Below, one piece after another: positions 1 through 13,406 of a DNA stretch of 13,406 nt (the first letter of the stretch is position 1; each line of letters starts with the position of its first letter). Origin of the DNA: a virus; the IMG/VR virus record IMGVR_UViG_2885994973_000001, positions 1 through 13,406 of that record; one strand, 5' to 3'. A model generated the notes under the pieces. It worked only from the letters and a program-made list of their open reading frames with translations. It was not told the origin of the DNA and ran no database searches. Position numbers and translations under genes: made by a program.

Positions 1-137
1 AAAGGGTAATGTTTGCACTATGTCCATGGCTATAGTCCATGTTGATAGTCCTTATAGACTCCCATAGTGCAACAAAGGCCAAGATTGTGGAAGGAACCGA
101 CCTGACTTTAAGCCGCGTAGTTGGAGCCCCGCCGGTG
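1..137. promoter_or_regulatory. Right part of the same repressor/xis operator region (duplicate copy at window start)
   Basis: TGCACTATG at 14-22 is inverted with CATAGTGCA at 63-71. CTATGTCCATG (18-28) and CTATAGTCCATG (30-41) are near-repeats. ATAGTCC occurs at 32-38 and 45-51. Confidence 0.55.
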
Positions 138-148
138 ATGCCATGGCG
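1..148. repeat. Terminal direct repeat, copy A (identical to 13259-13406)
   Basis: Base-by-base comparison of the window start with 13259-13406 shows identity up to the window edge, at an offset of 13,258 bp. Confidence 0.95.
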
Positions 149-302
149 CGAGTTTGCCAACTGGATCCGCATGGAGAACGAGCACGACACCGTGCGGGGC
201 TGGATTCGCAACGGCTACCTGCCGTCCAAGAAGATCGGCAAATACGTGCTGGTGAACGTTGCACTGCTGACCAAGCAGCTCATGGAAGAGGAGTGGGAGT
301 GA
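138..302 (+). CDS. Excisionase-family HTH DNA-binding protein (XisF-like lysis-lysogeny regulator), about 54 aa
   Basis: MPWREFANWIRMENEHDTVRGWIRNGYLPSKKIGKYVLV fits the excisionase/AlpA-type HTH pattern (..tvrrWi..G.lP..kiGk..l). The gene is divergent from the repressor. GGAG lies at 123-126, and GTG at 135 is an alternative start. The longer track ORF from 39 would run through the operator repeats, so it is disfavoured. Confidence 0.6.
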   Translation: MPWREFANWIRMENEHDTVRGWIRNGYLPSKKIGKYVLVNVALLTKQLMEEEWE

Positions 303-502
303 TGAAGACTCAATACGTCGTCGAAACCTGCACCTTCCACGGCCTGACCAAGCAACGTCGCTGGCACCGCGTGCACACCGGCCCGTCTCTCATGGACTGC
401 AACGCTTACGTCGGCAGCACCATTGCCAGCATGTACGCTCACTGGCGTCCTGAGCGTGCCCTGGATCTGTTCCGCGTCCGTGGCGTGAGGACTTCCGCAT
501 GA
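302..502 (+). CDS. Small hypothetical early protein, 66 aa
   Basis: The ATG at 302 overlaps the xis stop (TGATG). Codon third positions are strongly G/C in this frame. The track ORF 143-502 is an N-terminal extension in the same frame. Confidence 0.55.
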   Translation: MKTQYVVETCTFHGLTKQRRWHRVHTGPSLMDCNAYVGSTIASMYAHWRPERALDLFRVRGVRTSA

Positions 503-723
503 AAGCACCTGCCCTGTTCTCTGTTCAGCAATTCAAAGACCTCTGCGTCTGGCTGTTCTGGCTTTCGGCTTACGTGGCCTTCTGCGTGCTGTTCAGCCAC
601 CTGTTTAAGAGTCTTTGGGCTCTGCTTGTCGATGTGCCGGTACAGGCAATCGCCGCAATCGTGGCCGCTTCTATCGGTGCAATCGCTATCGGTTTTCGCC
701 TAGCCATGGGGGAGGGCAGATGA
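499..723 (+). CDS. Small hydrophobic (about 2-TM) hypothetical protein, 74 aa
   Basis: An ATGA start/stop overlap joins it to the previous ORF. It has two hydrophobic stretches (LCVWLFWLSAYVAFCVLF; AIAAIVAASIGAIAIGF) and high GC3. Confidence 0.55.
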   Translation: MKAPALFSVQQFKDLCVWLFWLSAYVAFCVLFSHLFKSLWALLVDVPVQAIAAIVAASIGAIAIGFRLAMGEGR

Positions 724-726
724 TCA

Positions 727-1059
727 ATGCAAAAGTACCTGCACCAGCCCCACAGGCCGGACTGCGACTGCTCTGTCTGCTATGTCAAAAGACTGGGGCC
801 TATCAGCCTGTCGCCACGCTGCGCCCAATGCCGCCCCGTGCGCTGTTTTCCGGTCGTTGGCCAAATGCGGCTGGTGAACGGGCACTGGCTGCACGTGAGC
901 AGTACCTACCGCTGGGCCTCGGGCTTTACCTGTCCCCAGCACTCACCAACGCCGTGCCCGCCTCGGTACTGGTACATGGTGGAAAACATCGGCAAGCCAA
1001 CGCCTTACGTCCCGCGCTGGGATCTGTTCGAGCTGGAGTCTGAGCCATGCACGACCTGA
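727..1059 (+). CDS. Cys-rich hypothetical protein, 110 aa (possible zinc-binding)
   Basis: GGAGGG at 711-716 lies 10 nt upstream of the ATG. GC3 is high in this frame. CDCSVC...CAQC..C motifs are present. The competing frame 720-1043 is Ala/Arg/Pro/Leu-rich shadow sequence. Confidence 0.55.
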   Translation: MQKYLHQPHRPDCDCSVCYVKRLGPISLSPRCAQCRPVRCFPVVGQMRLVNGHWLHVSSTYRWASGFTCPQHSPTPCPPRYWYMVENIGKPTPYVPRWDLFELESEPCTT

Positions 1060-1220
1060 CCGGATTTATGCCTGTAGGCGAGTGCTTTTACTGCGGCCAA
1101 ACCCAGGTGGTGAGCTGCCAGGGCTTCAACGTGGCGGACATCCCGGACGTGATCGTTTGCGGGGACTGCCAGGACATCAACGAACGTCGCCTCGCTGACC
1201 TTGAAGGGAAAACCGAGTAA
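1047..1220 (+). CDS. Small zinc-ribbon-like protein, 57 aa (not in the supplied ORF track)
   Basis: My translation is MHDLTGFMPVGECFYCGQTQVVSCQGFNVADIPDVIVCGDCQDINERRLADLEGKTE. It has two CxxC pairs and high GC3. It overlaps the upstream ORF by 13 nt, and its TAA stop overlaps the next ATG (TAATG). Confidence 0.5.
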   Translation: MHDLTGFMPVGECFYCGQTQVVSCQGFNVADIPDVIVCGDCQDINERRLADLEGKTE

Positions 1221-1417
1221 TGCCCGGCATCGTCCTGACCGTCGCCCAAGCCGCTGAGCTGTTGCCCTTGGCCAGCCAGCAGTTGGGCCGCATCCAGCAC
1301 CAACAGGACGCTGCCAACGAGAAAGGCATCCCGGAAAACTGGGGTGTGGATGAATGGCAGGAAATCGTAGAAGCCCTGCAAGGCCCAATCGTTCATGGGG
1401 TGGTGTATGTCGCCTGA
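1220..1417 (+). CDS. Small hypothetical protein, 65 aa
   Basis: The start is coupled through TAATG to the previous ORF. GC3 is high and the composition is acidic and soluble. Confidence 0.5.
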   Translation: MPGIVLTVAQAAELLPLASQQLGRIQHQQDAANEKGIPENWGVDEWQEIVEALQGPIVHGVVYVA

Positions 1418-1631
1418 GCTGTTCGTTGTGATCACGTACTGCCTGCTGGTTCTGTGCTTCATGACCCTTGGCCTGTTGTTCGCCTTCCTGCTGCTGCGCC
1501 GTGAGTTCTGCCCGCGCCGTGGTGGGCAGCCGAATCAGTCGCCTCCGGCGTCCGTGACTGGCCAACGCGATCACCCGGCCAGTTCACCGCGCGCACCGCC
1601 AGTCGCGGGCGACGGTGGCGAAATGGGATGA
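1407..1631 (+). CDS. Small membrane protein, about 74 aa (N-terminal TM helix, Pro/Ser/Ala-rich tail)
   Basis: The ATG at 1407 overlaps the end of the upstream ORF by 11 nt. The helix ELFVVITYCLLVLCFMTLGLLFAFLLL is followed by RR. The track start at 1395 is an alternative. Confidence 0.5.
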   Translation: MSPELFVVITYCLLVLCFMTLGLLFAFLLLRREFCPRRGGQPNQSPPASVTGQRDHPASSPRAPPVAGDGGEMG

Positions 1632-1810
1632 CAAGGGCAAGGCCCTTGGTGTGAACAAACGATCAGGCAACGCCTGACCCGGCTTTAACCCCCGGTAGAC
1701 CGATAAGCACCTGCAGGTTTTGAACTTCGAAGTTCACCTGCACGGACTCGCTCGGCCTGCTGAAAGGCAAAACCGCGCAATAACGCGCAACTGAAAAGAG
1801 GAAACACCCA
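1632..1810 (+). promoter_or_regulatory. Structured intergenic region upstream of the structural operon (candidate promoter, ori or packaging signal)
   Basis: There are hairpins at 1632-1648 (CAAGGGC/GCCCTTG) and 1663-1677 (TCAGGC/GCCTGA). A perfect 14-bp palindrome GAACTTCGAAGTTC at 1722-1735 is flanked by CACCTGCA at 1708-1715 and 1735-1742. CGCGCAA occurs twice (1774-1780, 1784-1790). The SD GAGGA is at 1798-1802. Confidence 0.45.
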
Positions 1811-2164
1811 ATGGCACGTTCGACTATGGAAGTTGCATTCCTGGGCACTCAGATGACCCAAGTTGATGACACCAAATACGCCAAGGTCTTCTACGGCGAC
1901 GAACCAGACGGCAAGACCGAACACGGCCTGTCGATCATCGGCATGGCCATCGCTGAAGACGCCGCCGACGAAGTATTCATGGCCGGCGCCCAGTTCGAGC
2001 CTCTGCAACTGGTGCGCATCACCTTCGACGTCGCCCGCGGCGGCCAGAACAAGGGCAAGAACCTCGCTCTGCATATCGAAGCCGTGGACAACAAAGCCCG
2101 TACCACGGCGAGCCCTGCGCCTGCTGCCAACACCGGCAAGCCTGCCGACCCGGCCAAAGCCTAA
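1811..2164 (+). CDS. Putative ssDNA-binding protein (g5p analogue), 117 aa
   Basis: It is the first gene after the long intergenic region, with a strong SD 8 nt upstream. It lies immediately upstream of the tiny hydrophobic ORFs and the coat gene, as in Ff/Pf phages. It has a Pro/Ala-rich C-terminal tail (TTASPAPAANTGKPADPAKA), as I recall for the Pf1 gene 5 protein. The assignment rests on position and composition only. Confidence 0.5.
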   Translation: MARSTMEVAFLGTQMTQVDDTKYAKVFYGDEPDGKTEHGLSIIGMAIAEDAADEVFMAGAQFEPLQLVRITFDVARGGQNKGKNLALHIEAVDNKARTTASPAPAANTGKPADPAKA

Positions 2165-2188
2165 CCCTGGCCGCCTGGAGCTCACCGC

Positions 2189-2305
2189 ATGGGAATCGAC
2201 GCCTATCTGGCCAACGTCACCCTCGGTGATCTCTGGGCCCTGCAGTTCATTCAAGGCGTGGTGATGATCGCCGCCCTTGGCCTTATCCACGGGCACCAGA
2301 GGTAA
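2189..2305 (+). CDS. Tiny hydrophobic protein, 38 aa (g7p/g9p-like or PfsE-position ORF; not in ORF track)
   Basis: My translation is MGIDAYLANVTLGDLWALQFIQGVVMIAALGLIHGHQR. CTGGAG lies 8 nt upstream and GC3 is high. The ORF sits between the ssDBP and the major coat gene. Confidence 0.45.
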   Translation: MGIDAYLANVTLGDLWALQFIQGVVMIAALGLIHGHQR

Positions 2306-2311
2306 CGGTTT

Positions 2312-2437
2312 ATGGCTTTCACCTGGGGGCAGTACCTCGTTATCGCTGGGCTCTTTGTGGGTGCTCTCGGGATTGGCGTGTCCTGGGGGGCCTTCCGGCT
2401 GGGCTGGAAGGAAATCGTCGACGCTTCAACCAACTGA
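2312..2437 (+). CDS. Tiny hydrophobic protein, 41 aa (g7p/g9p-like or PfsE-like; not in ORF track)
   Basis: My translation is MAFTWGQYLVIAGLFVGALGIGVSWGAFRLGWKEIVDASTN. GAGGT lies 8 nt upstream. It has a single TM helix with Trp/Gly-rich flanks. Confidence 0.45.
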   Translation: MAFTWGQYLVIAGLFVGALGIGVSWGAFRLGWKEIVDASTN

Positions 2438-2448
2438 GGAAACAACTC

Positions 2449-2751
2449 ATGTACCAAAGCAAAAAAGAAGCTGCCATTCGTGGCGGCCAGCTCGTACAGA
2501 ACGAGGCCAGTGTCGGTAAAGCACTGGGCGGCAAATCGCTCGCTCTGATCACTGCCGGTGCGGCCTCGCTGACTGCCGGTTCCGCCAATGCTGCAATCAC
2601 CGTCCCGCCTGAGCTGCTCGAAGTCTTCACCGATCTGGCGCTCGCGTTCGGCACCCTGATGGCGGCTGGTGCCGTGCTGTTCGGCGTTATCCGTGGTGGT
2701 GTGGCCCTGTTCAAGATCGCCGGTCGCGTATTCAGCGCTGCGGGCGCCTAA
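2449..2751 (+). CDS. Major coat protein precursor (g8p/CoaB-like), 100 aa
   Basis: The SD GAGGA is 8 nt upstream. A long leader ends in SANA|A, an AxA signal-peptidase site. The predicted 52-aa mature part has an acidic N-terminus (PPELLEVFTD), a hydrophobic core and a basic C-terminus (RGGVALFKIAGR), the classic inovirus coat layout. Confidence 0.8.
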   Translation: MYQSKKEAAIRGGQLVQNEASVGKALGGKSLALITAGAASLTAGSANAAITVPPELLEVFTDLALAFGTLMAAGAVLFGVIRGGVALFKIAGRVFSAAGA

Positions 2752-2771
2752 ACAGGGTTGGGGGTCGACTG

Positions 2772-4184
2772 ATGCGTACGGCTTTCGGCCTCCGCCTGTT
2801 ACTTGCTCTCACCCTTATGGGGTGGGGGCAGTTTGTTTTTGCTGAGGGCAACTTTTGGCAAGTTGATGGCGATGAGAGCTCCCGTGCGGGCTCCGCTCAA
2901 GCGCTTTGCGCTCGCCTCGTCGGTGAGTTCAACGCCGATGCCTATTGGCGAATTTACGATGATGCGGCCATCCCTGAGCAGCGTAAATTCTGCGATGCCT
3001 ACGGCAACATCGGTCAGACCTTCAAGATCTGGCCGCTTGTTCGTCTGAGCTGTCCTGCGGGTACCACCGTAGATCCTGTCACCGGCAAATGCTCGTCACC
3101 TCCTGTTGAGTGTGAGCCGTTAACAGGTCAGCGCTTCAGTTTCTTCGCCGTCGTCCCGAACGGTGGCAATAGCCTCCCTGGTGAGTACATCTGCCAGCAG
3201 GGCTGCCGTGCTGCCTGGTCTGGTGAGTGCGGTGCTAATGATCAAGGCATATCCGCTTGCTCGGGCCTTGCTACCTACAACGGACAGGTTTGCCAAAGCG
3301 GCGACACTCCGTCCGGCCTCGGTACACCTCCAAAAGATCCGAGTGAGCCAACCGACCCCACTACGCCGCCCGATCCAACTGACCCGCCAGACCCTACCGA
3401 TCCGCCTCCGGTCTGCGGCCCTGGTCATACATGGTCGGGCACTACCTGCGTAAAAGACCCACCCAAACAATGCGATCCCTCCACGGGTGAAGTCTGCCCG
3501 CCGACTGATCCTACTGACCCGAATAACCCCACCGATCCAACCGACCCCGATAACCCTGGCGACGGCGGTGATGGTGACGGCTCTGGTGATGGCGACGGCG
3601 ATACCGGTACGGGCGAACCCGGCGACGGCGACCAAGAAAAGCTTGGCGAGAAGATCGACAAGACCAACAGCCTGCTCGATGGCATCAGCAAAGCCCTGGG
3701 CAACCTGGGCGATGCCTTCAAAGAGTTTGCCGAGGATGCCCTGGGCGAGAAGTACGACGGCGAAGGGGACGGCGACGATAAGAGCATCGGCGAAGCCGCT
3801 GCAGGTTTGGCCGGTAGCTTGGCTGGCAACTTCGGCCAGGGCCTGAATGATTCCCTGGAAGCTCAGGAAGCACTCAACCAAGGCACCTTGGGCGACTTGC
3901 CCAACCTCGTCGGCAATGAGTGGTTCGGCCCCGGCACCGTGGCCTATTCCACGGTGTTCATGATCGACAAGGTGTTGCCTCGCGCCGGCAACTGTTCCGC
4001 CTTCGATGTGAAAGTCGATGCCGGAAAGCTGCACACCAACCTGCGCCTGGACGCCTGTGAGCTGAGCCGCATTAAGCCCCTGCTCGAGTGGATCGTGTGG
4101 ATGGGCACCATCATCGGCGTGTGGCGAATCGCCTATGCCGGCCTGCGTCTTGAAAACGCCAAAGCCGAAAAAGGAGGCTTCTGA
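2772..4184 (+). CDS. Minor coat / adsorption protein (g3p/CoaA-like), 470 aa
   Basis: It has a signal peptide (..GWGQFVFA|EG) and Cys-rich N-terminal domains. Low-complexity PTDP and GDG linkers lie at about 3327-3410 and 3498-3632. A C-terminal membrane anchor (LLEWIVWMGTIIGVWRIAYAGL) is present. The gene sits directly after the coat gene. Confidence 0.75.
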   Translation: MRTAFGLRLLLALTLMGWGQFVFAEGNFWQVDGDESSRAGSAQALCARLVGEFNADAYWRIYDDAAIPEQRKFCDAYGNIGQTFKIWPLVRLSCPAGTTVDPVTGKCSSPPVECEPLTGQRFSFFAVVPNGGNSLPGEYICQQGCRAAWSGECGANDQGISACSGLATYNGQVCQSGDTPSGLGTPPKDPSEPTDPTTPPDPTDPPDPTDPPPVCGPGHTWSGTTCVKDPPKQCDPSTGEVCPPTDPTDPNNPTDPTDPDNPGDGGDGDGSGDGDGDTGTGEPGDGDQEKLGEKIDKTNSLLDGISKALGNLGDAFKEFAEDALGEKYDGEGDGDDKSIGEAAAGLAGSLAGNFGQGLNDSLEAQEALNQGTLGDLPNLVGNEWFGPGTVAYSTVFMIDKVLPRAGNCSAFDVKVDAGKLHTNLRLDACELSRIKPLLEWIVWMGTIIGVWRIAYAGLRLENAKAEKGGF

Positions 4185-4561
4185 TGCTCGGCTGGATCAA
4201 AGGGTTCTTGCAGAAGTTCTTCCCCAACCTGTTCAAGCGTTTCAACGGCTGGCTGCTGGCATTCATCACGCCGCTGATTGCGCCGTTTTTCGAGTTCATC
4301 ACCAAGCTCTTTCGCAAGGTCGCGCTGTTCCTGCTGATCGTCGCCGCCATCGGCACGGCCATCGTCGTGTTCGCCAAGGCCGTTGAATCGGTGGTCGGGC
4401 GCATCGCTACCGAAATGGCCCCCGCTGACCTGATCGTCTTCGGCCAGATGTTCCTGCCGAGCAACTTGGCTCAGGGCATCACCATCCTTCTGTTCGCCCG
4501 CCTGCACTCCCTGGTGTTCATGTGGGTGCACCGCCTCACTGAAAAGTTTATCCACACCTGA
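4184..4561 (+). CDS. g6p-like minor coat / membrane protein, 125 aa
   Basis: A TGATG overlap couples it to the g3p-like gene. The protein is very hydrophobic and multi-spanning. It lies between g3p-like and g1p-like genes, as in Ff. Confidence 0.65.
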   Translation: MLGWIKGFLQKFFPNLFKRFNGWLLAFITPLIAPFFEFITKLFRKVALFLLIVAAIGTAIVVFAKAVESVVGRIATEMAPADLIVFGQMFLPSNLAQGITILLFARLHSLVFMWVHRLTEKFIHT

Positions 4562-4570
4562 GGATCGCCC

Positions 4571-5671
4571 GTGGCCGTCTACATCGTTACCGGCAAGCTG
4601 GGTGCTGGCAAAACCCTGCTGTGCATCCTCAAGATTCTGGAATACCTCAAAGCCCGCCGCCGCGTTGCCGTCAACGTCGATGTGAAGATGGACAAGCTCT
4701 GCCGGGGGGATAACAAGTACTCGCGCCTTGTCCGCCTGCCTGACCTGCCATCGGCTGAAGATCTGGTCGGTTTGGGCTTCGGCCATGAAACCTACGACGA
4801 AGAGAAATTCGGCGGGATCTTCCTCGACGAAGCCGGCGTGTGGCTCAACTCCCGCGACTGGAATTCCGGTGGCCGTACCGACCTGCTGAAGTTCTTCCTG
4901 TTCCTGCGCAAACGCCGCTGGGATCTGTGGTTGTGCGTGCAAAACGTCAACGTCATCGATAAGCAGATTCGCGAATCCATCGCTGAGCACGTGGTGTACA
5001 TCAACCGCTGGGACAAGCTGAAGATTCCCTTCGTGTTCCGCCTGCCGCTGCGTGTCCTGAGCTTGGGTATGTGGAAAGGCAACCTGCCGAAACTGCATCA
5101 GGCCATCGTGAAATACGGCGCCAAGTTCAACTCACCCAAGGTTGAAGACTGGTTCTACCAAGGCAAAGAGTTCTACAGCTATTACGACACCACCCAGGAA
5201 TACAACAAGGACTACGACAAGGGCTCGTACTCCATGCTCCCGCCCGGCTACTGGCGTCGCCGCCTTCCTGCATCACCTCGCGACCTGGGGTTTCTCATGC
5301 GCACCACCAAAATATTCTTCCGCCGCACTCGGGTGGTGAACGCCTTTTTCCTGGGCGGCCTGATCACCCTGTTTGTTTCGCTGCCGGTGTTCTCGGCTAT
5401 TGCCTGGATTCGTACGCCGGGCGTCGCCGTACAGGAAAAACCAGCCGCTGTAGAAGAAGAGAAAAAGGCCACCTTGGCCGAAGAGTTCGAGGGCTACCGC
5501 ATCGCCTCCTATGGGCTCATGTCGGGCCAGTCCCGCTATGTGTTCGTGGATCCCGACGGCAAGCGCATCCGCTCCGAGGATCTGCTCTCCCGCGCTATCA
5601 CCATCGATCCACGGGGGCCGCGAGAAGTGCGGTTGCTGCGTGGTACCGACTCCCTCACCGTCTACAGGTAA
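4571..5671 (+). CDS. Zot/g1p-like phage assembly ATPase, 366 aa
   Basis: It starts at GTG, with GAGGA 6 nt upstream. Walker A is GKLGAGKT at the N-terminus and Walker B-like is GGIFLDEAG. There is a single central TM segment (VVNAFFLGGLITLFVSLPVFSAIAWI). Confidence 0.85.
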   Translation: MAVYIVTGKLGAGKTLLCILKILEYLKARRRVAVNVDVKMDKLCRGDNKYSRLVRLPDLPSAEDLVGLGFGHETYDEEKFGGIFLDEAGVWLNSRDWNSGGRTDLLKFFLFLRKRRWDLWLCVQNVNVIDKQIRESIAEHVVYINRWDKLKIPFVFRLPLRVLSLGMWKGNLPKLHQAIVKYGAKFNSPKVEDWFYQGKEFYSYYDTTQEYNKDYDKGSYSMLPPGYWRRRLPASPRDLGFLMRTTKIFFRRTRVVNAFFLGGLITLFVSLPVFSAIAWIRTPGVAVQEKPAAVEEEKKATLAEEFEGYRIASYGLMSGQSRYVFVDPDGKRIRSEDLLSRAITIDPRGPREVRLLRGTDSLTVYR

Positions 5672-5677
5672 TCGGCC

Positions 5678-7021
5678 ATGAAACGTTGGCTTTCTCTGGT
5701 ACTGCTGCCGCTCGCCCTCACTTCCACGCTCGCCCGCGCTGCTGTGGAGAAGATCGAACTGTACGACTCCACCCTGCAGGACTTCGTAGAGTGGGCCGCC
5801 GTGATGCTGAATAAATCGGTGGTCGTCGGTTCCGATATCCGCTCGGCGCCGATCTCGATTTTCGCCACCTTCGATGGCCCCCAGGAACTCGAACAGCTCT
5901 TGGAAAACGCCGTCCTGTCTTCGGGCTTTCACTACTCCAAAAGCCCCAACGCGATCCGCATCAGCGCACAACCGATTCAGGAATCGCCCGTCCTGGTCAC
6001 AGAGGTGATTCAGCTCCAGCACCTGCAGTCCGACTTCGCCGAACAGTCCGTCCGCGATGTGCTGGCTTCCCGCGCTGACCGCAACACTGAGAACAACACC
6101 ACCGGCCAGGTACTCGTCACACCGTCGCCCACCTCGAACGCCCTGATCGTCACTGCCACGCGCCCCCAGCTCGACGCCATCAAAGAGGTGGTCACCGAAA
6201 TCGACCGACCGCGGCGACAGGTGCAAATCACCGCGGTGGTGGCTGAGCTGTCGGATAACGACTTCGAAGCCCTGGGCCTTAATGCCGCTGCCGGCTCAAA
6301 CCGCCTCGATCTGTCGGGCCGCACCATCCGTTCTTCGGATCGCTCCGACCTGGGCTTCAGCCTCACGTTCTCCGGCCCGACCATCTCGGCCTTCCTGCAG
6401 GCGGTGCGCTCCAGCTCCAGCAGCAACCTGTTATCCACGCCTCAGCTACTGACCCTCAACCGTGAACCCGCATCCATCGTCGTCGGCCAGAACGTCCCCT
6501 TTATCACCGGCCAGACCACCAGTGGCTCCACTCCGGCATCAGATCCGTTTCAAACCATCGTGCGCCAGGATGTGGGCGTAACCCTACAGGTCACGCCCTT
6601 CATCACGCCGGCCGACGCGATAGAGCTGCAGGTCAGCCAGTCCGCCTCTAGCGTCTCGGACGACAACACCGCCGCCGACATCATCACCAACACGCGCCGC
6701 ATCATCACGCGGGTACAGCTCAAGGATGGCCAGGGGGTGCTCCTGGGTGGGCTGCGATCGACGCAAACCGATCGCTCTACCAGCGCGGTGCCGATCCTCG
6801 GTGATATCCCGTACCTGGGGCGCGCCTTCCGCTACGAATCCAACCGCGTACGCACCACCAACCTTGTGGTGCTCATAACCGCCCGTATACAGGCCCTGAA
6901 CCACAACGAGCTGATGCCGGCTGATGCGGGGCCGTGGATGGATCTTTCGTTCGGCGCGTTGCCCGGCGGTGGTTTGGGCGCAGCCCGTGACACCGCCGGG
7001 CGCGCGACGGGCGCCCGGTGA
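5678..7021 (+). CDS. Phage-encoded outer-membrane secretin (g4p/GspD family), 447 aa
   Basis: It has a signal peptide (LTSTLARA|AVEK). Secretin C-domain signatures are present: LLSTPQLLTLNREPASIVVGQNVPFITG, GVTLQVTPFI, VLLGGL, VPILGDIPYLGRAFRY and LVVLITARI. It lies directly after the g1p-like gene, as in Ff. Confidence 0.85.
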   Translation: MKRWLSLVLLPLALTSTLARAAVEKIELYDSTLQDFVEWAAVMLNKSVVVGSDIRSAPISIFATFDGPQELEQLLENAVLSSGFHYSKSPNAIRISAQPIQESPVLVTEVIQLQHLQSDFAEQSVRDVLASRADRNTENNTTGQVLVTPSPTSNALIVTATRPQLDAIKEVVTEIDRPRRQVQITAVVAELSDNDFEALGLNAAAGSNRLDLSGRTIRSSDRSDLGFSLTFSGPTISAFLQAVRSSSSSNLLSTPQLLTLNREPASIVVGQNVPFITGQTTSGSTPASDPFQTIVRQDVGVTLQVTPFITPADAIELQVSQSASSVSDDNTAADIITNTRRIITRVQLKDGQGVLLGGLRSTQTDRSTSAVPILGDIPYLGRAFRYESNRVRTTNLVVLITARIQALNHNELMPADAGPWMDLSFGALPGGGLGAARDTAGRATGAR

Positions 7022-7088
7022 CGTCCCTGTAACACGTCAGATAAACCAGCTTGAAAGTGGCCATTATTGGCCAATAAGGGAAAAACAG

Positions 7089-8369
7089 ATGAGCGTTAAA
7101 GACCAGCGACGGATTGACCGAGCAACCGGCTCAGAGAGCAAGACGGGTCGTCTCTTCATGGATGCTGCGTCAGCAGCATTGACCGACCTTTCGCGAGTAC
7201 GCCTGCTGCGCTGTGGCGTGGACACCGTGCGCCAGTTGTATCGGGGCCTGATCCGCCCTGAGATCATGTGCCTGTTCGAGAAGCCCGGCGCCATGGTCGA
7301 ATTCGCTGACCAGATCTGGCACTCGGGCCGTGTCAGCAAAGACTCTGGCTACCAGTACAAGCTCCAGAACGCTGACCTCGGCATCATCCTGCTGGTGAAG
7401 AACTTCAACGCCAAGATCGACGCCATCGGCGCCCACCTGAAAATCGAAGTCTCGCCCCATGCCATCGACGCGCTGTCGCCTGAGCGCCTGCAAGACCGCA
7501 TGGACTATTACGCCTCGGCTGTCCTGACCCACCGTGAAATCAACCAGTGCGCAGTCCACCTCGCCCTGGATCTGCAAGGCTGGAAACCGCCTGTAGATCT
7601 GGTCGCCCGTATGCACTGCCGGGCACGCACTCAACGCGATATTTCGGGCATCAATGAAATCAACTGGACCACAAAATCCAGCACCTACGGTCGCGGCGAA
7701 ACCTTCATGTTCGGTTCGGCCAGCGGCGTGCAACTGGCGATCTACAACAAGACCGAGCAAGCCCGGGCAACCGACAAACTCGACTACTGGGAAAGCGTGT
7801 GGAAGCGCCGCGACAGCTTCGACCCACAAGATCCCGATAACTATGATCCTGACGCCGATGTATGGCGCGTAGAGCTGCGCTATCACCATTCGGTCATCCA
7901 GCAATTCGCCAGTGGCTCAATCGACCTGAAGTCCGGCGCACTGATCGACACCAGCTCCTTTGCCGCCTTCGCTGGGCATCTGGACGGCCTGTGGCGCTAT
8001 GGCTTGAGGCAATTCAAGTTGCTGGCCCGCCCAGGATATTTCGAGCCCATCTGGACGCTGATCCGCGACGACGTGCGCGTCGATCTGCCGGTGGACTCCC
8101 TGCTCGATGACACCGAATACAAGCGTTACTACAAGACCTCGCGTGGCTTCTCCGGCAAGAACGTGGAGCTATTCCTGGGAAACTTCGTAAGCCTGCTGGC
8201 AAGGGAAAAGGTGGGCGCAAAAAAGGCGTTTAAGACCCTGCAGCAATGGGACTGCTGGCCGGTCATCCGCGATCATTACGCCGCCAAGGACATGACCCAG
8301 GACGATCTCTACAAACATATCCGGGATCTTCTGCAGGAGCGTCACGTGCGGTGGGGTAGAGCGGTCTGA
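7089..8369 (+). CDS. Rolling-circle replication initiation protein (Rep_trans-like motifs), 426 aa
   Basis: The ATG at 7089 follows the structured spacer. Motifs AVHLALDLQG, LAIYNKTEQ (candidate catalytic Tyr) and VWRVELRYHH resemble the RxDxAxD / YxK / RxE pattern of replication initiation factors of filamentous phages and RCR plasmids. The track ORF start at 6924 would overlap the secretin by 98 nt and is rejected. Confidence 0.7.
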   Translation: MSVKDQRRIDRATGSESKTGRLFMDAASAALTDLSRVRLLRCGVDTVRQLYRGLIRPEIMCLFEKPGAMVEFADQIWHSGRVSKDSGYQYKLQNADLGIILLVKNFNAKIDAIGAHLKIEVSPHAIDALSPERLQDRMDYYASAVLTHREINQCAVHLALDLQGWKPPVDLVARMHCRARTQRDISGINEINWTTKSSTYGRGETFMFGSASGVQLAIYNKTEQARATDKLDYWESVWKRRDSFDPQDPDNYDPDADVWRVELRYHHSVIQQFASGSIDLKSGALIDTSSFAAFAGHLDGLWRYGLRQFKLLARPGYFEPIWTLIRDDVRVDLPVDSLLDDTEYKRYYKTSRGFSGKNVELFLGNFVSLLAREKVGAKKAFKTLQQWDCWPVIRDHYAAKDMTQDDLYKHIRDLLQERHVRWGRAV

Positions 8370-9349
8370 TGGCGATCAAGAAGCTTCCTGATGGCCGTTG
8401 GCATGTAGACATTGAACCCGCTCATGACCGGCGTTTTCGTAGAACCTTCAAAACCAAGGGTGAGGCTCAACGCTTTGAAACTACCTGCCGCTCCAAGGTA
8501 GCTGAATCGCGCGACTGGTCGCCAAGGCCCAAGGATAAACGTCGGCTCTCTGAGCTTATGCAGCTCTGGTATGACTTGCACGGCCACTCACTGCGATATG
8601 CAGCCGGTCGCCTGCGTAAACTGCTCTATCTTGCTAAGCGTCTGCGCAATCCCGTGGCCATCCGACTCGACCCGCATGTCTACGCTAATGACCGGCGCTT
8701 GAGGATGGAAGCCGGCACTTCGCCCAAGACGCTCAATAACGAGCTGGGTTACCTGCGTGCCGTGTACAACGAGCTGCGCGGCCTGGGCGTTATTGACTAC
8801 CCGAATCCGCTGGAGCTGGTTAAGCCATTGCGTGTCCAAGAACGTGAGTTGTCCTGGCTGACTAATGAGCAGATAGCCGAGTTGCTGCAGGCGATCCGTT
8901 CGGGCTGCGATAACCCGCACGTCGAAATCATCGTGTTGATCTGCTTGGCCACTGGTGCCAGATGGTCTGAGGCCGAAAAGCTCAAGCCGCATTCGTTGCG
9001 TAACCGGGTGATTACGTTCAGTGGTACCAAAAGCGGCAAGGTACGATCGGTGCCGATCTCTGCCGAGCTTGAAGCCAGGATCATTCGTCACTGGCGTGAG
9101 TATGGCCAGCCAAACTCGGCCATTACCGCGTTCCGCCGCGCCTTGGCCCGCACGACCATCAAGCTACCGAAGGGGCAGGCAGCGCATGCACTGCGCCATA
9201 CCTTCGCTAGCCACTTCATCCAAAACGGCGGAAACATCGTCACGCTACAGCGAATCCTGGGTCATTCGAGCTTGGCCATGACCATGCGGTATGCGCATCT
9301 CGCTCCTGACCATCTGCAGGACGCTTTACGTTTCGGCCCTACGTTGTGA
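8369..9349 (+). CDS. int: Tyrosine recombinase / phage integrase, 326 aa
   Basis: It has ATGARWSEA (Arg I), HALRHTFASH (HxxR) and LGHSSLAMTMRYAHL (catalytic Tyr). The start is coupled to rep through TGATG. It lies next to the attP-like site. Confidence 0.9.
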   Translation: MAIKKLPDGRWHVDIEPAHDRRFRRTFKTKGEAQRFETTCRSKVAESRDWSPRPKDKRRLSELMQLWYDLHGHSLRYAAGRLRKLLYLAKRLRNPVAIRLDPHVYANDRRLRMEAGTSPKTLNNELGYLRAVYNELRGLGVIDYPNPLELVKPLRVQERELSWLTNEQIAELLQAIRSGCDNPHVEIIVLICLATGARWSEAEKLKPHSLRNRVITFSGTKSGKVRSVPISAELEARIIRHWREYGQPNSAITAFRRALARTTIKLPKGQAAHALRHTFASHFIQNGGNIVTLQRILGHSSLAMTMRYAHLAPDHLQDALRFGPTL

Positions 9350-9359
9350 ATCTCAGCGG

Positions 9360-9605
9360 CTACTTATCGCTGATTCTCGCCCTGGCTAAGGCATTCGCTG
9401 CAAGGTGCTTGATATACCTCAGCTCGCCCGGCGTGTGCTTATCTGACTGGTGCGCTTCGATCAATCTCACAAGCTCATTAATACTTTTTGGATCTTTCGC
9501 CATCTCAGCCTTGATGATTTCGATAGCACCGTCAGCGCAATAGCGCTCAACTCCGCCGAAATTCAGTTCTCCGACGTTTATCTTCAATTTCGACCCTCCG
9601 CGCAC
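9360..9605 (-). CDS. Hypothetical small protein, 75-81 aa, between int and att
   Basis: The ORF is convergent with int and has intermediate GC. The track start is GTG at 9605. A TTG at 9587 has a better SD (GGAGGG, 6-nt spacer). I recognised no motifs. Confidence 0.4.
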   Translation of the reverse strand: MRGGSKLKINVGELNFGGVERYCADGAIEIIKAEMAKDPKSINELVRLIEAHQSDKHTPGELRYIKHLAANALARARISDK

Positions 9606-9688: not shown

Positions 9689-9733
9689 AAAGAAAAACCC
9701 CTGACTTTCTCTAGGAAAATCAGGGGTTTATTT
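9689..9733. terminator. Bidirectional rho-independent terminator
   Basis: A 12-bp stem with one mismatch pairs CCCCTGACTTTC (9698-9709) with GAAAATCAGGGG (9715-9726) around the loop TCTAG. An A-run (9689-9697) precedes it and TTTATTT (9727-9733) follows. On the minus strand it directly follows the tRNA-like ...CCA end. Confidence 0.75.
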
Positions 9734-9755
9734 GGTGGAGCCGGGGGGATTTGAA
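9733..9755 (-). other. attP core candidate: 23-nt copy of a tRNA-like 3' end (T-loop, T-stem, acceptor strand, ACCA)
   Basis: The minus strand reads TTCAAATCCCCCCGGCTCCACCA: T-loop TTCAAAT, stem CCCCC, acceptor CGGCTCC, discriminator A, then CCA. The upstream 5 nt (ACGGA) cannot form the T-stem, and no matching 5' acceptor strand occurs within 100 nt. It is therefore a fragment, not a gene. Confidence 0.65.
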
Positions 9756-9770
9756 TCCGTTTCAATTACT

Positions 9771-9857: not shown

Positions 9858-9932
9858 GCGTTTACGACACTTTTTCGACACCACGACGCTTTCCAATCTT
9901 GGGTTGGATCGTTTTTCGCCTGAGTCAGCTCG

Positions 9933-11156
9933 CTAAGGAATGCTCAGGTCTTTAATCTGTGAGAAAGCAAATTTTAATATCTGTTTTGTGAAGTCGTTTA
10001 GTTCGTCGTTTTTTGCGATGGCATAAATAATTCCTATGATTAACACACCTGCAGCAAGGTCATTTATAAAAATCAGTCTTGATTTGGATTTTATTATGAT
10101 GGTGAGTAATTTTTCTTTTGCTTCCTCTGCGCTTACTCGTACTTCGTTTTCATCTTTCATCACTTCGTAACGTTTTAGGGAACGTTTTATTTGCTCGGCT
10201 AAAGCGTCGTAAGCCTCAGAATGAATTCTGTTGGCTATGACGGTCAGAATCCATACACATAATAGAGAAAAGCATACCATTCCTAACGATGGGATATCAT
10301 CACTTCGAGCTAGTGCCGCAACAGCAATTACTGCTCCTGGAATTGCAAAAGCTTTTGTTTGGCTTGAGGATATTGAATCGTTGATTTTTGTTATGTACTC
10401 AGTGGACTTTTCTTCTATTTCTGTAAGTAATTTATTTGCCGAGAATTTGTGAAGATATACATCGTAGTTTTCTTTGTATTTCTTTTGTAGTCTACTCCCC
10501 TGCGTTATCAGCCAAGGCATTGATGTGTTTTCTTCAAGTAATTCCGCTAGGGATGTTCTTAAAACATCTCTACGTTCTTTTTGATGACCATCTAAAAGTT
10601 TGATTGCACTGTGTAGTTGGTCAAGATCTTCGCTCGTGCTGTCTGTAATGCACAGCTCCAACAGTTCAGGGAGCTTGATTTTTTTAGGGTTTACTTCGTA
10701 AATCTTTGCTCCTTTGTCTGTGCTTATGAAGTATATGAGCGTTGAATCATTGCCCTCTGAGCCTCTGTGGTCTTTGAGACTCGTCAGAAATTGTCTCCAG
10801 CTCAGATAGTGCTCTATCGTTTTTATTTCTTTTGCTTTTTTATCGCACTCACTATGAATTTTTTCTTTAAGAATATAGTAATTTGCCGGGAGTTTTTCAT
10901 GGTTCCTTGCCTCATCCCATAGAGCTTCAATTGACTCATAAAAGGGAGAGTTGTTGTCCCAAGCTTCGGCGTCTAGTTCAATAGCTAAGTAATATATTTC
11001 GGCATCATGGCTTTCTATGGTTTGGGCTCTCAAGTACCCAATCTCACAAATTTCACTGTGAGCTTTTCTAAGTTCTTCTTCGCTACCGTAAATGCAAAGA
11101 AAGCCGCCCTCTGCCTTGGGCGGTAACTTTTGTAAAAGCTCAGTTAGAGTCTTCAT
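9933..11156 (-). CDS. Cargo protein B: large soluble N-terminal domain plus three C-terminal TM helices, 407 aa (414 aa if TTG at 11177 is used)
   Basis: G+C is low (19/60 in 10021-10080). The ATG at 11156 has GAGAG 5 nt upstream, while the track start at 11177 is TTG without an SD. Hydrophobic helices lie at about aa 276-291, 297-316 and 368-388 (414-aa numbering). It overlaps the end of the upstream gene. Confidence 0.75.
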   Translation of the reverse strand: MKTLTELLQKLPPKAEGGFLCIYGSEEELRKAHSEICEIGYLRAQTIESHDAEIYYLAIELDAEAWDNNSPFYESIEALWDEARNHEKLPANYYILKEKIHSECDKKAKEIKTIEHYLSWRQFLTSLKDHRGSEGNDSTLIYFISTDKGAKIYEVNPKKIKLPELLELCITDSTSEDLDQLHSAIKLLDGHQKERRDVLRTSLAELLEENTSMPWLITQGSRLQKKYKENYDVYLHKFSANKLLTEIEEKSTEYITKINDSISSSQTKAFAIPGAVIAVAALARSDDIPSLGMVCFSLLCVWILTVIANRIHSEAYDALAEQIKRSLKRYEVMKDENEVRVSAEEAKEKLLTIIIKSKSRLIFINDLAAGVLIIGIIYAIAKNDELNDFTKQILKFAFSQIKDLSIP

Positions 11157-12300
11157 CTGAGCTCTCGTGATCTCCAATGCTAGCTTTTATTTTCTCTCTA
11201 TCTGCTTCGCTTAAGGGGATTTTTAGATAAGTTAGCTCGTCATCTACCTGCACCGGTTTATTCGATCCTGCGTATCCTATCGATGCAGCTTTTACCGATA
11301 CAGAATAGTTGCTATTGAAATCAGTGATTTTAATAGAGATGCTTTTTTCTAAAGCTTGCCGTGTCGCTTCAAAAACAGAGTTGATTTGAAATCCATTTTC
11401 ATTTGCATATTTAGCAAATGTTGCTGTGAGTTTGTGTCCTGCAGGTAGGCCTTTGTCTATTACTTGTTGTATTTCAACTAGTGAAACTTGTTTGCCCAGA
11501 TTTTTTTCAATATGTTCGTAAACTTTTTCAGTAACCTTTTTCAGGAATGCTGGCCCAAGTTTATTCTCATTTGAGAATTTCTTGATTGCCTCGAACACAT
11601 TGTTTACGCTTTGCTGGTTTGTGACTTTTATGTCGCACCCTAAAGCTGTTTTGAAAAACTCAGCTTTTGACTTCCCGTCGATGAAGTGCAGGTACGCTGA
11701 ACCTTCTTTTTTGGGGTGTATCTCGAGAAATAGCGTCAGATCGAACATTGCAGCTTGTCGCAATGCGTCAGTATCTATAGGTTGTAATCTTCTCGGCTGA
11801 AGGGTTCCTTCTTCAAATTCAAAGGCTCCTTTTTTGTCAACCATTACAATCATCAGTCTTCCATGATCTTCATAGTCGCCAAAAGTTTTGTAATGCATGA
11901 ACACGATGTTTCCGCCTACAAGGTTTCGACTCTCCGACTCATTGGCTGTTATGGTTAGAATTTTTATCAGTTCTACCGCTAAGTCATCTAGCGCTATATC
12001 TCCTGATATTAGTTTTTTTAATCCATCCGGTGTTTTGTTAGATGGTAGTCCAGAAAAATAGCTGTGAAACTTATTTTTTCTTCGAAACTTTTTTTGTATT
12101 TGCTCAACGAATTCTGTAGAAACGTTGTTTTTCAAATTCCATGTGTTACCGACTTGATACTTGAAGGGGTGGCCTTTAGTCTCTTTGTCTCGTTCTAGTG
12201 ATGCAGTTATAGCTGCTAGTACAGATATGCTAGGTGAAGCAGTCGGTGTTTTCTCTGATTTGCTATCTTCGCTAACTTCAGTGCCCACTTTGTTGTTCAT
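11140..12300 (-). CDS. Cargo protein A: NdpA/YejK-family (NA37) nucleoid-associated protein homologue, 386 aa
   Basis: Motifs align by eye with E. coli YejK. VGGNIVFMHY matches ADGGIVLFCHY, and LMIVMVD matches LLVAVLS. IDTDALRQAAMFDLTLF matches INHADIVARIDLTEW. AYLHFIDGKSKAEFFKTALGC matches [24 protein letters not shown]. G+C is low and the start is ATG at 12300. Confidence 0.75.
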   Translation of the reverse strand: MNNKVGTEVSEDSKSEKTPTASPSISVLAAITASLERDKETKGHPFKYQVGNTWNLKNNVSTEFVEQIQKKFRRKNKFHSYFSGLPSNKTPDGLKKLISGDIALDDLAVELIKILTITANESESRNLVGGNIVFMHYKTFGDYEDHGRLMIVMVDKKGAFEFEEGTLQPRRLQPIDTDALRQAAMFDLTLFLEIHPKKEGSAYLHFIDGKSKAEFFKTALGCDIKVTNQQSVNNVFEAIKKFSNENKLGPAFLKKVTEKVYEHIEKNLGKQVSLVEIQQVIDKGLPAGHKLTATFAKYANENGFQINSVFEATRQALEKSISIKITDFNSNYSVSVKAASIGYAGSNKPVQVDDELTYLKIPLSEADREKIKASIGDHESSDEDSN

Positions 12301-12348
12301 GGCTTTCCCTATTCTGCTTGTGCTGACTTATATTATTATCTTTGCTGG

Positions 12349-12891
12349 TTAATCTCTGTGGCTTAGCCCAACTGCAGACCTACAGTTTCTGCGTTCTATG
12401 CTTCCTTCCTTGTGAGGCCAGCACGCGCGATCTTTCATGCTAGGTGACTGTTCTATTATTGTTACGCGCACCTTGTCTGCACTCTTCGCCGTCTCTCTTA
12501 CTTGATGTGCTCGTGTTGCAGGTATCACATTGACTGCATGAGCCGGTAGATATGTTGCTGCGTTGTATTCAGTTTGTTTAGGCTGCTGAATCTGAGTACT
12601 TTGCGAAGTTCGCTCCGTTTCGCTTGAGCGTCTCGCCACCTCTTCAACGATCTTGTCCCAGTCTTTTTCGGCGGGCGCCGATCTGGTGATTTCTGCGATG
12701 GGGGCTTGCTTTGACTTTTGGCCGTTAAGTATTTGGTCAGCCACGTCATGCATATAAAGCGCGCTCAGGGTGTAGAGCATTCCTACCGTGAGGATGCTTC
12801 CCAGAAATGACGCAACAATCCATGTTGATCCATTGCTTCTGCGGGCACTTGGCCTGAAGTGAGTCGGTGCATCATCCCTGTCAGCTTTCAT
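12349..12891 (-). CDS. Membrane-anchored hypothetical protein, 180 aa, downstream of the repressor
   Basis: The SD AAGGA is 7 nt upstream of the ATG. A positively charged N-terminus (RPSARRS) is followed by one TM helix (WIVASFLGSILTVGMLYTLSALY) and a roughly 130-aa polar C-terminal domain with 2 Cys. It is on the same strand as the repressor, 55 nt downstream. Confidence 0.6.
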   Translation of the reverse strand: MKADRDDAPTHFRPSARRSNGSTWIVASFLGSILTVGMLYTLSALYMHDVADQILNGQKSKQAPIAEITRSAPAEKDWDKIVEEVARRSSETERTSQSTQIQQPKQTEYNAATYLPAHAVNVIPATRAHQVRETAKSADKVRVTIIEQSPSMKDRACWPHKEGSIERRNCRSAVGLSHRD

Positions 12892-12946: not shown

Positions 12947-13213
12947 CTATCCCGCGTTTTGACCGGTCAAGGTTCGATTGGCCTCGTCGTATTCGGGGCT
13001 CGTTTGGCCGATTTCAGGCATCACCTCCCCAGTGCTCAGCCACCATCTGTAATTCGGGTAAGCCTTGCCCAATATCTCTATTTCTTCAGCTCCGACCCGC
13101 GCTCTGCCGCGCTTAATACTCACCCAACGGTTGTAGTCCGTCTCGCCTGCTCGGGTCAGCTCGCTGAGGTTGCTCGCGCTGATTAGTAGAAGGGCTCTAT
13201 CAGTAATGTTCAT
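12947..13213 (-). CDS. Small HTH immunity repressor (Pf4r / P2 C-like by position), 88 aa
   Basis: It is divergent from the excisionase-like gene across the repeat-rich operator. It has an HTH-like segment, NLSELTRAGETDYNRWVSIKRG. Its size is typical of inovirus/P2-type C repressors. Confidence 0.6.
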   Translation of the reverse strand: MNITDRALLLISASNLSELTRAGETDYNRWVSIKRGRARVGAEEIEILGKAYPNYRWWLSTGEVMPEIGQTSPEYDEANRTLTGQNAG

Positions 13214-13395
13214 TCAATAGAAATATAGATTATTTGGACTATGTACAAGACATACTCTAAAGGGTAATGTTTGCACTATGTCCATGGCTATAGTCCATGT
13301 TGATAGTCCTTATAGACTCCCATAGTGCAACAAAGGCCAAGATTGTGGAAGGAACCGACCTGACTTTAAGCCGCGTAGTTGGAGCCCCGCCGGTG
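13214..13395. promoter_or_regulatory. Divergent repressor/excisionase intergenic control region (operators plus promoters); contiguous copy
   Basis: This 182-bp AT-richer spacer lies between the repressor ATG (13213, minus) and the xis ATG (13396, equivalent to 138). It holds a 9-bp inverted repeat, TGCACTATG at 13272-13280 and CATAGTGCA at 13321-13329. The ATAGTCC/GGACTAT motif recurs (13236-13242, 13290-13296, 13303-13309). CTATGTCCATG and CTATAGTCCATG form a direct near-repeat. Confidence 0.6.
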
Positions 13396-13406
13396 ATGCC
13401 ATGGCG
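13259..13406. repeat. Terminal direct repeat, copy B (identical to 1-148)
   Basis: This is the same 148 nt as the window start. It contains the operator region and the first codons of the xis-like gene (ATG at 13396). Confidence 0.95.

Follow-up and report, generated by a model that had tools for sequence, protein, structure and literature searches.

Introduction

DS-1 is a two-gene anti-phage system that was described in the DefensePredictor study (bioRxiv 10.1101/2025.01.08.631726, January 2025; Science 2026, PMC13092281), where it corresponds to transcription unit D390 of an Escherichia coli strain (Tables S6, S8 and S11 of PMC13092281). The unit encodes WP_000355468.1, an NA37 protein of 391 amino acids (aa), followed by WP_000150292.1 (404 aa), and was assayed in E. 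coli MG1655 from a low-copy plasmid that kept the native promoter (PMC13092281). The available portion of the plating data lists reductions of 7.6 logs for phage Bas1, 2.7 for Bas26, 1.7 for Bas3 and T3, 1.0 for T5 and 0.9 for T7 (PMC13092281). The same study classed the YejK domain as "not previously validated in defense" and reported no mechanistic work on DS-1 (PMC13092281). Here we examine a pair of overlapping genes, A and B, in IMG/VR record IMGVR_UViG_2885994973_000001, a virus sequence of 13,406 nt that was analyzed over its whole length and is called the window below. Judged by homology, this pair is a Pseudomonas orthologue of the already described DS-1 system.

A second body of work concerns PANGU, in which a YejK-like nucleoid-associated protein (NAP) is combined with an effector (bioRxiv 10.64898/2026.04.06.716658, April 2026). 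Type II PANGU consists of the NAP Pag2A and of Pag2B, whose N-terminal domain is acidic and mimics DNA (the DMK domain) and whose C-terminal domain is transmembrane. In the type II system PANGU-Ecu, both genes are needed for defence, neither is toxic by itself, and cultures show abortive-infection-like behaviour. Pag2A-GFP leaves the nucleoid upon T4 infection, and the isolated acidic domain of Pag2B binds Pag2A in vitro with a dissociation constant (KD) of 19 nM (10.64898/2026.04.06.716658). For type I PANGU, the available part of the preprint describes escape mutants in the T4 nuclease EndoII and a NAP that binds long DNA (10.64898/2026.04.06.716658).

Results

A low-G+C pair of overlapping genes matches both DS-1 families

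The two genes fill a block at 9900..12350. Gene A (11140-12300, minus strand, ATG start) encodes a 386-aa protein of the NA37/YejK fold, and gene B (9933-11156, minus strand) encodes a 407-aa protein with an acidic soluble N-terminal domain and C-terminal hydrophobic helices. The 407-aa form of protein B begins at the in-frame ATG at 11156 and is the one annotated by NCBI; the open reading frame (ORF) also opens at a TTG at 11177, giving 414 aa over 9933-11177 on the minus strand. The overlap between the two minus-strand ORFs that had been read from the sequence is present with either start, at 38 nt for the TTG and 17 nt for the ATG.

The composition of the block is foreign, with ~39% G+C inside a phage of ~60%. 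Over 9933-12300 the G+C content is 38.8%, compared with 59.6% for the phage, and the drop sits between the integrase and repressor genes. Per line of 60 bases, the mean is 23.3 G+C (maximum 30) in 9933-12300 versus 35.8 in 1-9300. A recount returned exactly the per-line values given in the initial annotation of this DNA, namely 19/60 at 10021-10080 and 24/60 at 11401-11460.

We compared both proteins with the equivalog models of NCBIfam release 20 at their curated cut-offs, using reference DS-1 sequences from Table S8 of PMC13092281. Protein A scored 406.1 bits against NF053868.1 (DS1_1_antiphage, "nucleoid-associated anti-phage protein"; cut-off 330), with residues 11-363 covering model positions 14-369 of 369, and BLASTP aligned it with the E. 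coli DS-1A protein WP_000355468.1 at 40% identity over 367 aa (E 3e-90). Protein B scored 325.8 bits against NF053869.1 (DS1_2_antiphage; cut-off 315), covering model positions 3-337 of 337, and was 28% identical to the E. coli DS-1B protein WP_000150292.1 over 387 aa (E 1e-47). The initial annotation had offered the block as an undescribed module unless both genes mapped to a named system. Both proteins do map to one, and because they lie above the DS-1 equivalog cut-offs and align over their full length with the validated proteins, the claim of an undescribed system falls.

The likeness to DS-1 extends beyond this full-length, collinear homology. In the window, as in E. coli, an NA37 gene is followed by the gene for a partner of ~400 aa with C-terminal hydrophobic helices, the two genes are neighbours or overlap in the same orientation, and the pair is carried as prophage cargo. 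The loci also differ. The host here is Pseudomonas rather than E. coli, and the carrier is a filamentous inovirus rather than a lambdoid prophage, where DS-1 occupies the slot between antiterminator Q and holin. At its N-terminus, the window protein A is acidic and disordered where E. coli DS-1A has a CxxC..CxxC zinc ribbon, and a small transmembrane gene, orf180, lies upstream in the window.

A PADLOC search, which had been recommended as a check, returned no named system, and it was the NCBIfam equivalogs that gave DS-1. Neither protein had a match better than E 0.015 in PADLOC-DB v2 (2023), which contains models for known as well as candidate defence systems; this empty result is explained by the age of the library, which predates DS-1. 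A loose resemblance to Kiwa had also been proposed. PADLOC-DB v2 contained no Kiwa match, nor any other significant one, for either protein. We rejected assignment to Kiwa as homologues of KwaA and KwaB, since there is no sequence relationship and the domain families are different; the likeness is confined to a general logic of a membrane protein with a DNA-interacting protein.

Protein A has the NA37 fold and is distinct from housekeeping YejK

The initial annotation placed the upstream product in the NA37 family, and this was borne out by a Pfam PF04245 match of 68.4 bits (cut-off 24.6). We modelled protein A with AlphaFold2 (AF2; predicted local distance difference test, pLDDT, 81), and Foldseek found YejK (9be2) as the sole significant match in the PDB, at E 3.9e-15, template modelling scores of 0.58/0.65 and 18% identity. 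Protein A therefore shares the two-domain clamp fold of YejK/NdpA as well as the Pfam match. Orthology to YejK itself was considered and rejected, because protein A reached 63.3 bits on the YejK model NF001557, whose equivalog cut-off is 341. Protein A also differs from YejK in always being paired with a membrane partner on mobile DNA of foreign composition. By its profile scores, protein A belongs to the NA37 fold family and is distinct from housekeeping YejK.

The basic pore residues through which YejK binds DNA are R173, R176, K177, R276, R280 and K284 (PMC11229321). In a profile alignment to 9be2, which is remote at 18% identity, R173 corresponds to K210 and R276 to R314 of protein A, while K177 and R280 align beside the basic residues K212 and K319. 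In the same remote alignment, R176 falls within a YejK-specific insertion and K284 lies beyond the aligned region. An N-terminal CxxC..CxxC zinc-ribbon motif occurs in 29/50 members of the DS-1A family, including E. coli DS-1A. Where the ribbon would be, the first 25 residues of protein A form an acidic disordered tail (pLDDT ~30), and the other Pseudomonas-clade DS-1A members that we sampled likewise have no such motif. The close family of gene A is found in Pseudomonas, Enterobacterales, Vibrio and Pasteurellaceae. We propose that protein A is a DNA-bound sensor.

Protein B is a putative membrane-anchored partner with an acidic domain

Protein B matched no Pfam family. Using 407-aa numbering, it has two strong hydrophobic helices at ~288-309 and ~359-382 and a third, shorter and weaker one at ~267-283, which passes only with a 15-residue window. 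An earlier description of about 275 soluble residues followed by three hydrophobic helices was therefore roughly right in its helices, two being strong and one weak, and needs correction in the soluble part, which is ~265 aa. These soluble residues (1-265) carry a net charge of -13 and have an isoelectric point (pI) of 5.25.

The AF2 model of protein B (pLDDT 81) has an alpha/beta N-terminal domain at ~1-160 and a helical region to ~218. These are followed by a long juxtamembrane helix, a short hydrophobic helix, a strong one, a helical hairpin and the second strong hydrophobic helix. A Foldseek search of the PDB with this model found no structure below E 0.3, and the fold is therefore uninformative about effector chemistry. 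Across 33 homologues, the best-conserved stretch is residues 234-282, which take in the juxtamembrane helix together with the first of the hydrophobic helices. The gene B family counts 403 clusters (50% identity) at E<=1e-3 and 93 at E<=1e-10. We propose that protein B is a membrane effector.

The pair is conserved in unlike genomic contexts

Thirty-three loci were scanned by tblastn, of which 27 had enough upstream DNA, three were cut at a contig end and one was spurious. A gene A homologue lies directly upstream of gene B on the same strand in 27/27 testable loci, and a separately fetched E. coli DS-1 locus (L034) has the same arrangement of A then B. The initial annotation had asked whether the two genes co-occur as neighbours and in prophage cargo slots elsewhere; they are neighbours in all testable loci, and prophage cargo slots are among the contexts.

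The P. aeruginosa pair (L004/L005) comes right after the repressor gene of another Pf-like prophage, whose xis and repressor are 62% and 47% identical to those of the window. The P. protegens pair adjoins the integrase of an unrelated temperate phage at the edge of the prophage, and on IMG/VR contig L012 the pair follows gpD of a P2-like myovirus, at the tail end. E. coli DS-1 (L034, 6001-8393) has antiterminator Q on one side and the holin/lysis genes on the other within a lambdoid prophage. In Stx phages, this slot carries stx. The E. coli locus is present at >=99% identity in 106/5,426 complete genomes of the species. The pair stands as a bare islet amid housekeeping genes in P. oryzihabitans and P. 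stutzeri; the P. stutzeri copy has 39-45% G+C in a chromosome of 65-70%. This variety of prophage types and bare islets speaks against a function in the life cycle of Pf and fits a cassette that benefits the host.

One P. stutzeri islet (L010, 5585-9440) holds orf180, the NA37 gene and the partner gene within ~3.8 kb. It is bordered by a tRNA-SeC gene (5585-5680) and by a ~42-nt repeat of the 5' half of that gene (9393-9440), and it contains the remnant of an integrase C-terminus at 5771-5896. The islet looks like a decayed Pf-like prophage in which only these three genes have been kept.

When 50,697 deposited phage genomes were searched by tblastn with gene B, none matched. With the cargo region as a megablast query against the phage genomes, matches were limited to the repressor gene in two Pf phages of P. 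aeruginosa. Related Pf phages of P. aeruginosa in the phage collection lack the pair, which therefore lies outside the Pf core. A single-protein scan of genome contigs returned only a contig of Pseudomonas sp. PA27(2017) and one spurious match. In the copies searched, the current public annotation reads "nucleoid-associated protein" and "hypothetical protein".

The pair lies between the attachment site and the repressor gene

The Pseudomonas sp. PA27(2017) contig (L001) is 99.5% identical to the window from position 13406 back to 9693 and diverges just after the segment GGATTCAAATCCCCCCGGCTCCACCA, which is found at 9733-9758 on the minus strand. From this comparison, the divergence point (~9731-9758) is the prophage-host junction, the attachment site (att). 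With a T-loop, an acceptor strand and CCA, GGATTCAAATCCCCCCGGCTCCACCA looks like the 3' end of a tRNA or transfer-messenger RNA (tmRNA) gene. This is our own reading and not the result of a tool; ARAGORN and Rfam, the latter in gathering and E-value modes, did not call the att fragment as a tRNA or tmRNA. A hairpin that resembles a terminator, with 15 bp in its stem and a T-run behind it, lies at 9695-9729 on the minus strand, ~200 nt downstream of gene B, and a similar hairpin follows the GGATTCAAATCCCCCCGGCTCCACCA motif in the PA27 contig too (L001, 3649-3725). On the host side of the PA27 junction (L001, 3764-5077) are a 228-aa ORF and a fragment of an insertion sequence (IS)-type transposase, and the phage may have integrated there beside another mobile element.

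The initial annotation had put the block in the slot between att and the immunity repressor gene. It is indeed flanked by the att-like site at 9733-9758 and, on the other side, by the Pf-type immunity repressor gene at 12947-13213 (minus strand), which matches phrog_147 (E 6e-25) and phrog_37130 and has 76-78% nucleotide identity by megablast to the repressor genes of Pseudomonas phages 62-2 and 99-2. Position in the att-repressor slot, foreign composition and repressor orientation are the features of Pf-type accessory cargo, and the block has all three. Genes A and B lie on the strand of the repressor gene, and the structural genes are on the opposite strand. This arrangement suggests that the pair is expressed during lysogeny, and it may be co-transcribed with the repressor gene.

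A possible third gene, orf180, lies between the repressor gene and gene A (12349-12891, minus strand). It encodes 180 aa with one predicted transmembrane helix and matches phrog_7381 (E 5e-13). In the P. stutzeri islet, the NA37 gene is immediately preceded by a homologue of orf180 with 33% identity (L010, 6123-6674). Among the loci in which the backbone search could detect it, orf180 was absent from those of P. aeruginosa and P. protegens. As it accompanies the pair in two settings, orf180 may be a co-travelling accessory gene or a third component; alternatively, it may be a remnant of the Pf backbone.

The carrier is a complete Pf-like inovirus

Bases 1-148 of the window are repeated exactly at 13259-13406. 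This terminal direct repeat shows that the assembly is circularly closed with a unit of 13,258 bp, and the window is a complete Pf-like inovirus rather than a chromosomal segment. Its backbone encodes an excisionase-like protein (39-302), a pI/Zot-type morphogenesis protein (4571-5671), a pIV-type secretin (5678-7021, plus strand; phrog_1012, E 1.7e-105), a 481-aa protein of unknown function (6924-8369; phrog_1159) and, across the att region from the cargo, a tyrosine integrase (8369-9349, plus strand; Pfam Int_N 115 bits, Phage_integrase 84 bits).

A pIV-type secretin gene is thus part of the window phage itself. Pf1 and Pf4 of P. aeruginosa are not known to have one and use a host secretin instead, and the backbone of the window phage may therefore differ from that of the classical Pf lineage. 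Degenerate 30-nt repeats, several of them at 9-nt spacing, occur at 3330-3548 (plus strand) within the ORF at 2772-4184. They code for a Pro/Thr/Asp-rich linker in the 470-aa product of that ORF, and linkers of this kind are typical of pIII-like adsorption proteins.

Discussion

The low-G+C block is very probably an anti-phage defence module on a filamentous Pseudomonas phage. We give a probability of roughly 70% to the fuller proposal, in which genes A and B are a DS-1 orthologue carried as cargo of a Pf-like phage between att and the repressor gene and act by a PANGU-like mechanism. The initial annotation had pictured a nucleic-acid-binding sensor coupled to a membrane effector that acts by abortive infection, and this picture agrees with the published evidence on DS-1 and PANGU.

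Judging from architecture and host, DS-1 itself is probably a type II PANGU system, and type II PANGU offers the best available mechanistic model for the pair. The window genes share with it a YejK-like NAP that is encoded first, a two-gene operon layout and an origin in Pseudomonadota. Protein B likewise has an acidic N-terminal domain ahead of C-terminal hydrophobic helices, although DNA mimicry by this domain is conjectural. The differences are that the preprint stresses linkage to defence islands, whereas the window copy is prophage cargo, and that the reported phage spectrum is unlike that of DS-1.

Under this model, the NA37/YejK-fold protein would sit on the host chromosome as a dimeric clamp. 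Degradation of the chromosome by a lytic phage would set protein A free, and the free protein would then bind the acidic N-terminal domain of membrane-anchored protein B. Protein B would in turn damage the membrane or arrest growth, and the infected cell would yield no phage, as in abortive infection. The effector may thus act at the membrane, and this copy may be active and work in the PANGU way. Because a filamentous phage does not degrade host DNA, a Pf-like phage could carry the sensor without triggering it and would shield its host from lytic competitors.

Several points weigh against this account. The defence phenotype comes from the E. coli homologue rather than from this copy or from any Pseudomonas host, and protein B is only 28% identical to the E. 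coli protein that was tested, with a margin of only ~10 bits over the NF053869.1 cut-off. Protein A is without the CxxC..CxxC motif of the tested E. coli DS-1A, and the acidity of the protein B N-terminal domain is moderate (pI 5.25) and short of extreme. A consensus scan for promoters had no match directly upstream of gene A and, as a whole, fewer matches than a shuffled control. The equation of DS-1 with type II PANGU is drawn from architecture, and the preprint leaves open how Pag2B is activated and how it acts (10.64898/2026.04.06.716658). Finally, the phage ranges of DS-1 and PANGU-Ecu, as far as the available data report them, differ. PANGU-Ecu protects against T4 and gives no protection against T1 or T5 (10.64898/2026.04.06.716658), whereas the effect of DS-1 on T5 is weak and the available portion of Table S7 has no T4 row for DS-1 (PMC13092281).

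Other explanations start from the same observations. The Pseudomonas clade could be a functional variant of DS-1/PANGU-II, marked by the missing zinc ribbon, the acidic tail of protein A and orf180 as a possible third component, with expression from the repressor side of a phage that is chronic and non-lytic. Such a variant might respond to another cue and take part in exclusion between Pf phages. The cue might be incoming single-stranded or replicative-form DNA of a Pf phage, or a change in the nucleoid short of bulk degradation. We regard this reading as unlikely; if it is true, the variant would double as an inter-Pf exclusion system.

A role confined to superinfection exclusion, in which the membrane protein blocks uptake or assembly of Pf-type phages at the envelope, is quite unlikely. 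The accessory slot beside the Pf repressor gene and the predicted membrane anchor of protein B would suit such a function, and Pf phages are known to encode exclusion functions. The homologues that have been tested, however, act on tailed lytic coliphages, and others reside in tailed prophages and chromosomal islets of hosts that lack an inovirus context. Moreover, exclusion at the surface needs no DNA-clamp partner.

The possibility that the NA37 protein is a phage NAP that compacts, silences, replicates or maintains phage or host DNA, with the membrane protein as an accessory, is harder still to accept. Mobile elements carry NAPs, and plasmid-borne NdpA-like proteins are thought to act in this way. 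Protein A is a bona fide member of the DNA-clamp fold by Pfam and Foldseek (PMC11229321), and the remote alignment places basic residues at or beside several of the DNA-binding positions of YejK. Yet protein A stands at 63 bits against the 341 that define the YejK equivalog, while exceeding the cut-off of the anti-phage equivalog. The gene is strictly coupled to that of a membrane partner (27/27 loci), and the pair is no part of the Pf core, being absent from related P. aeruginosa Pf phages. The initial annotation had raised chromosome compaction or silencing as its own alternative, which is unlikely because the pair persists unchanged in phage-free islets and in lambdoid, P2-like and other unrelated prophages. 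In addition, the E. coli homologue defends from a plasmid without any prophage (PMC13092281).

It is highly improbable that the pair is a toxin-antitoxin-like addiction module, with a membrane toxin and an NA37 antidote that stabilize the prophage. Pf prophages do carry toxin-antitoxin modules, and the genes here overlap, share an orientation and include one membrane product, but the type II PANGU genes are singly non-toxic and are both needed for defence. The pair also outlasts the decayed prophage in islets, which fits a benefit to the host and is compatible with addiction as well. Equally improbable is a passenger that is inactive or decaying and now serves no function. Gene B is barely above its family cut-off, but both ORFs are intact and full-length against homologues, the invariant residues of both families are kept, and an independent genome assembly has the locus at 99.5% identity.

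A DS-1 orthologue with a PANGU-like mechanism remains the reading that we prefer. It introduces no new class of system, and its practical outcome is the re-annotation of these genes. The new points are modest and consist of a filamentous carrier with an att-repressor slot, a clade without the zinc ribbon and orf180 as a possible third gene. With this pair, the known range of an E. coli defence system validated only recently widens to Pseudomonas and filamentous phages, and the finding indicates that the cassette moves among unlike cargo slots, from those of Pf-like phages to the Q-holin slot of lambdoid phages, the tail end of P2-like phages and decayed islets. Should the PANGU model hold, a sensor of genome degradation would have a naturally safe carrier in a chronic phage that leaves host DNA intact, and the susceptibility of Pf-lysogenic Pseudomonas to therapeutic lytic phages could change.

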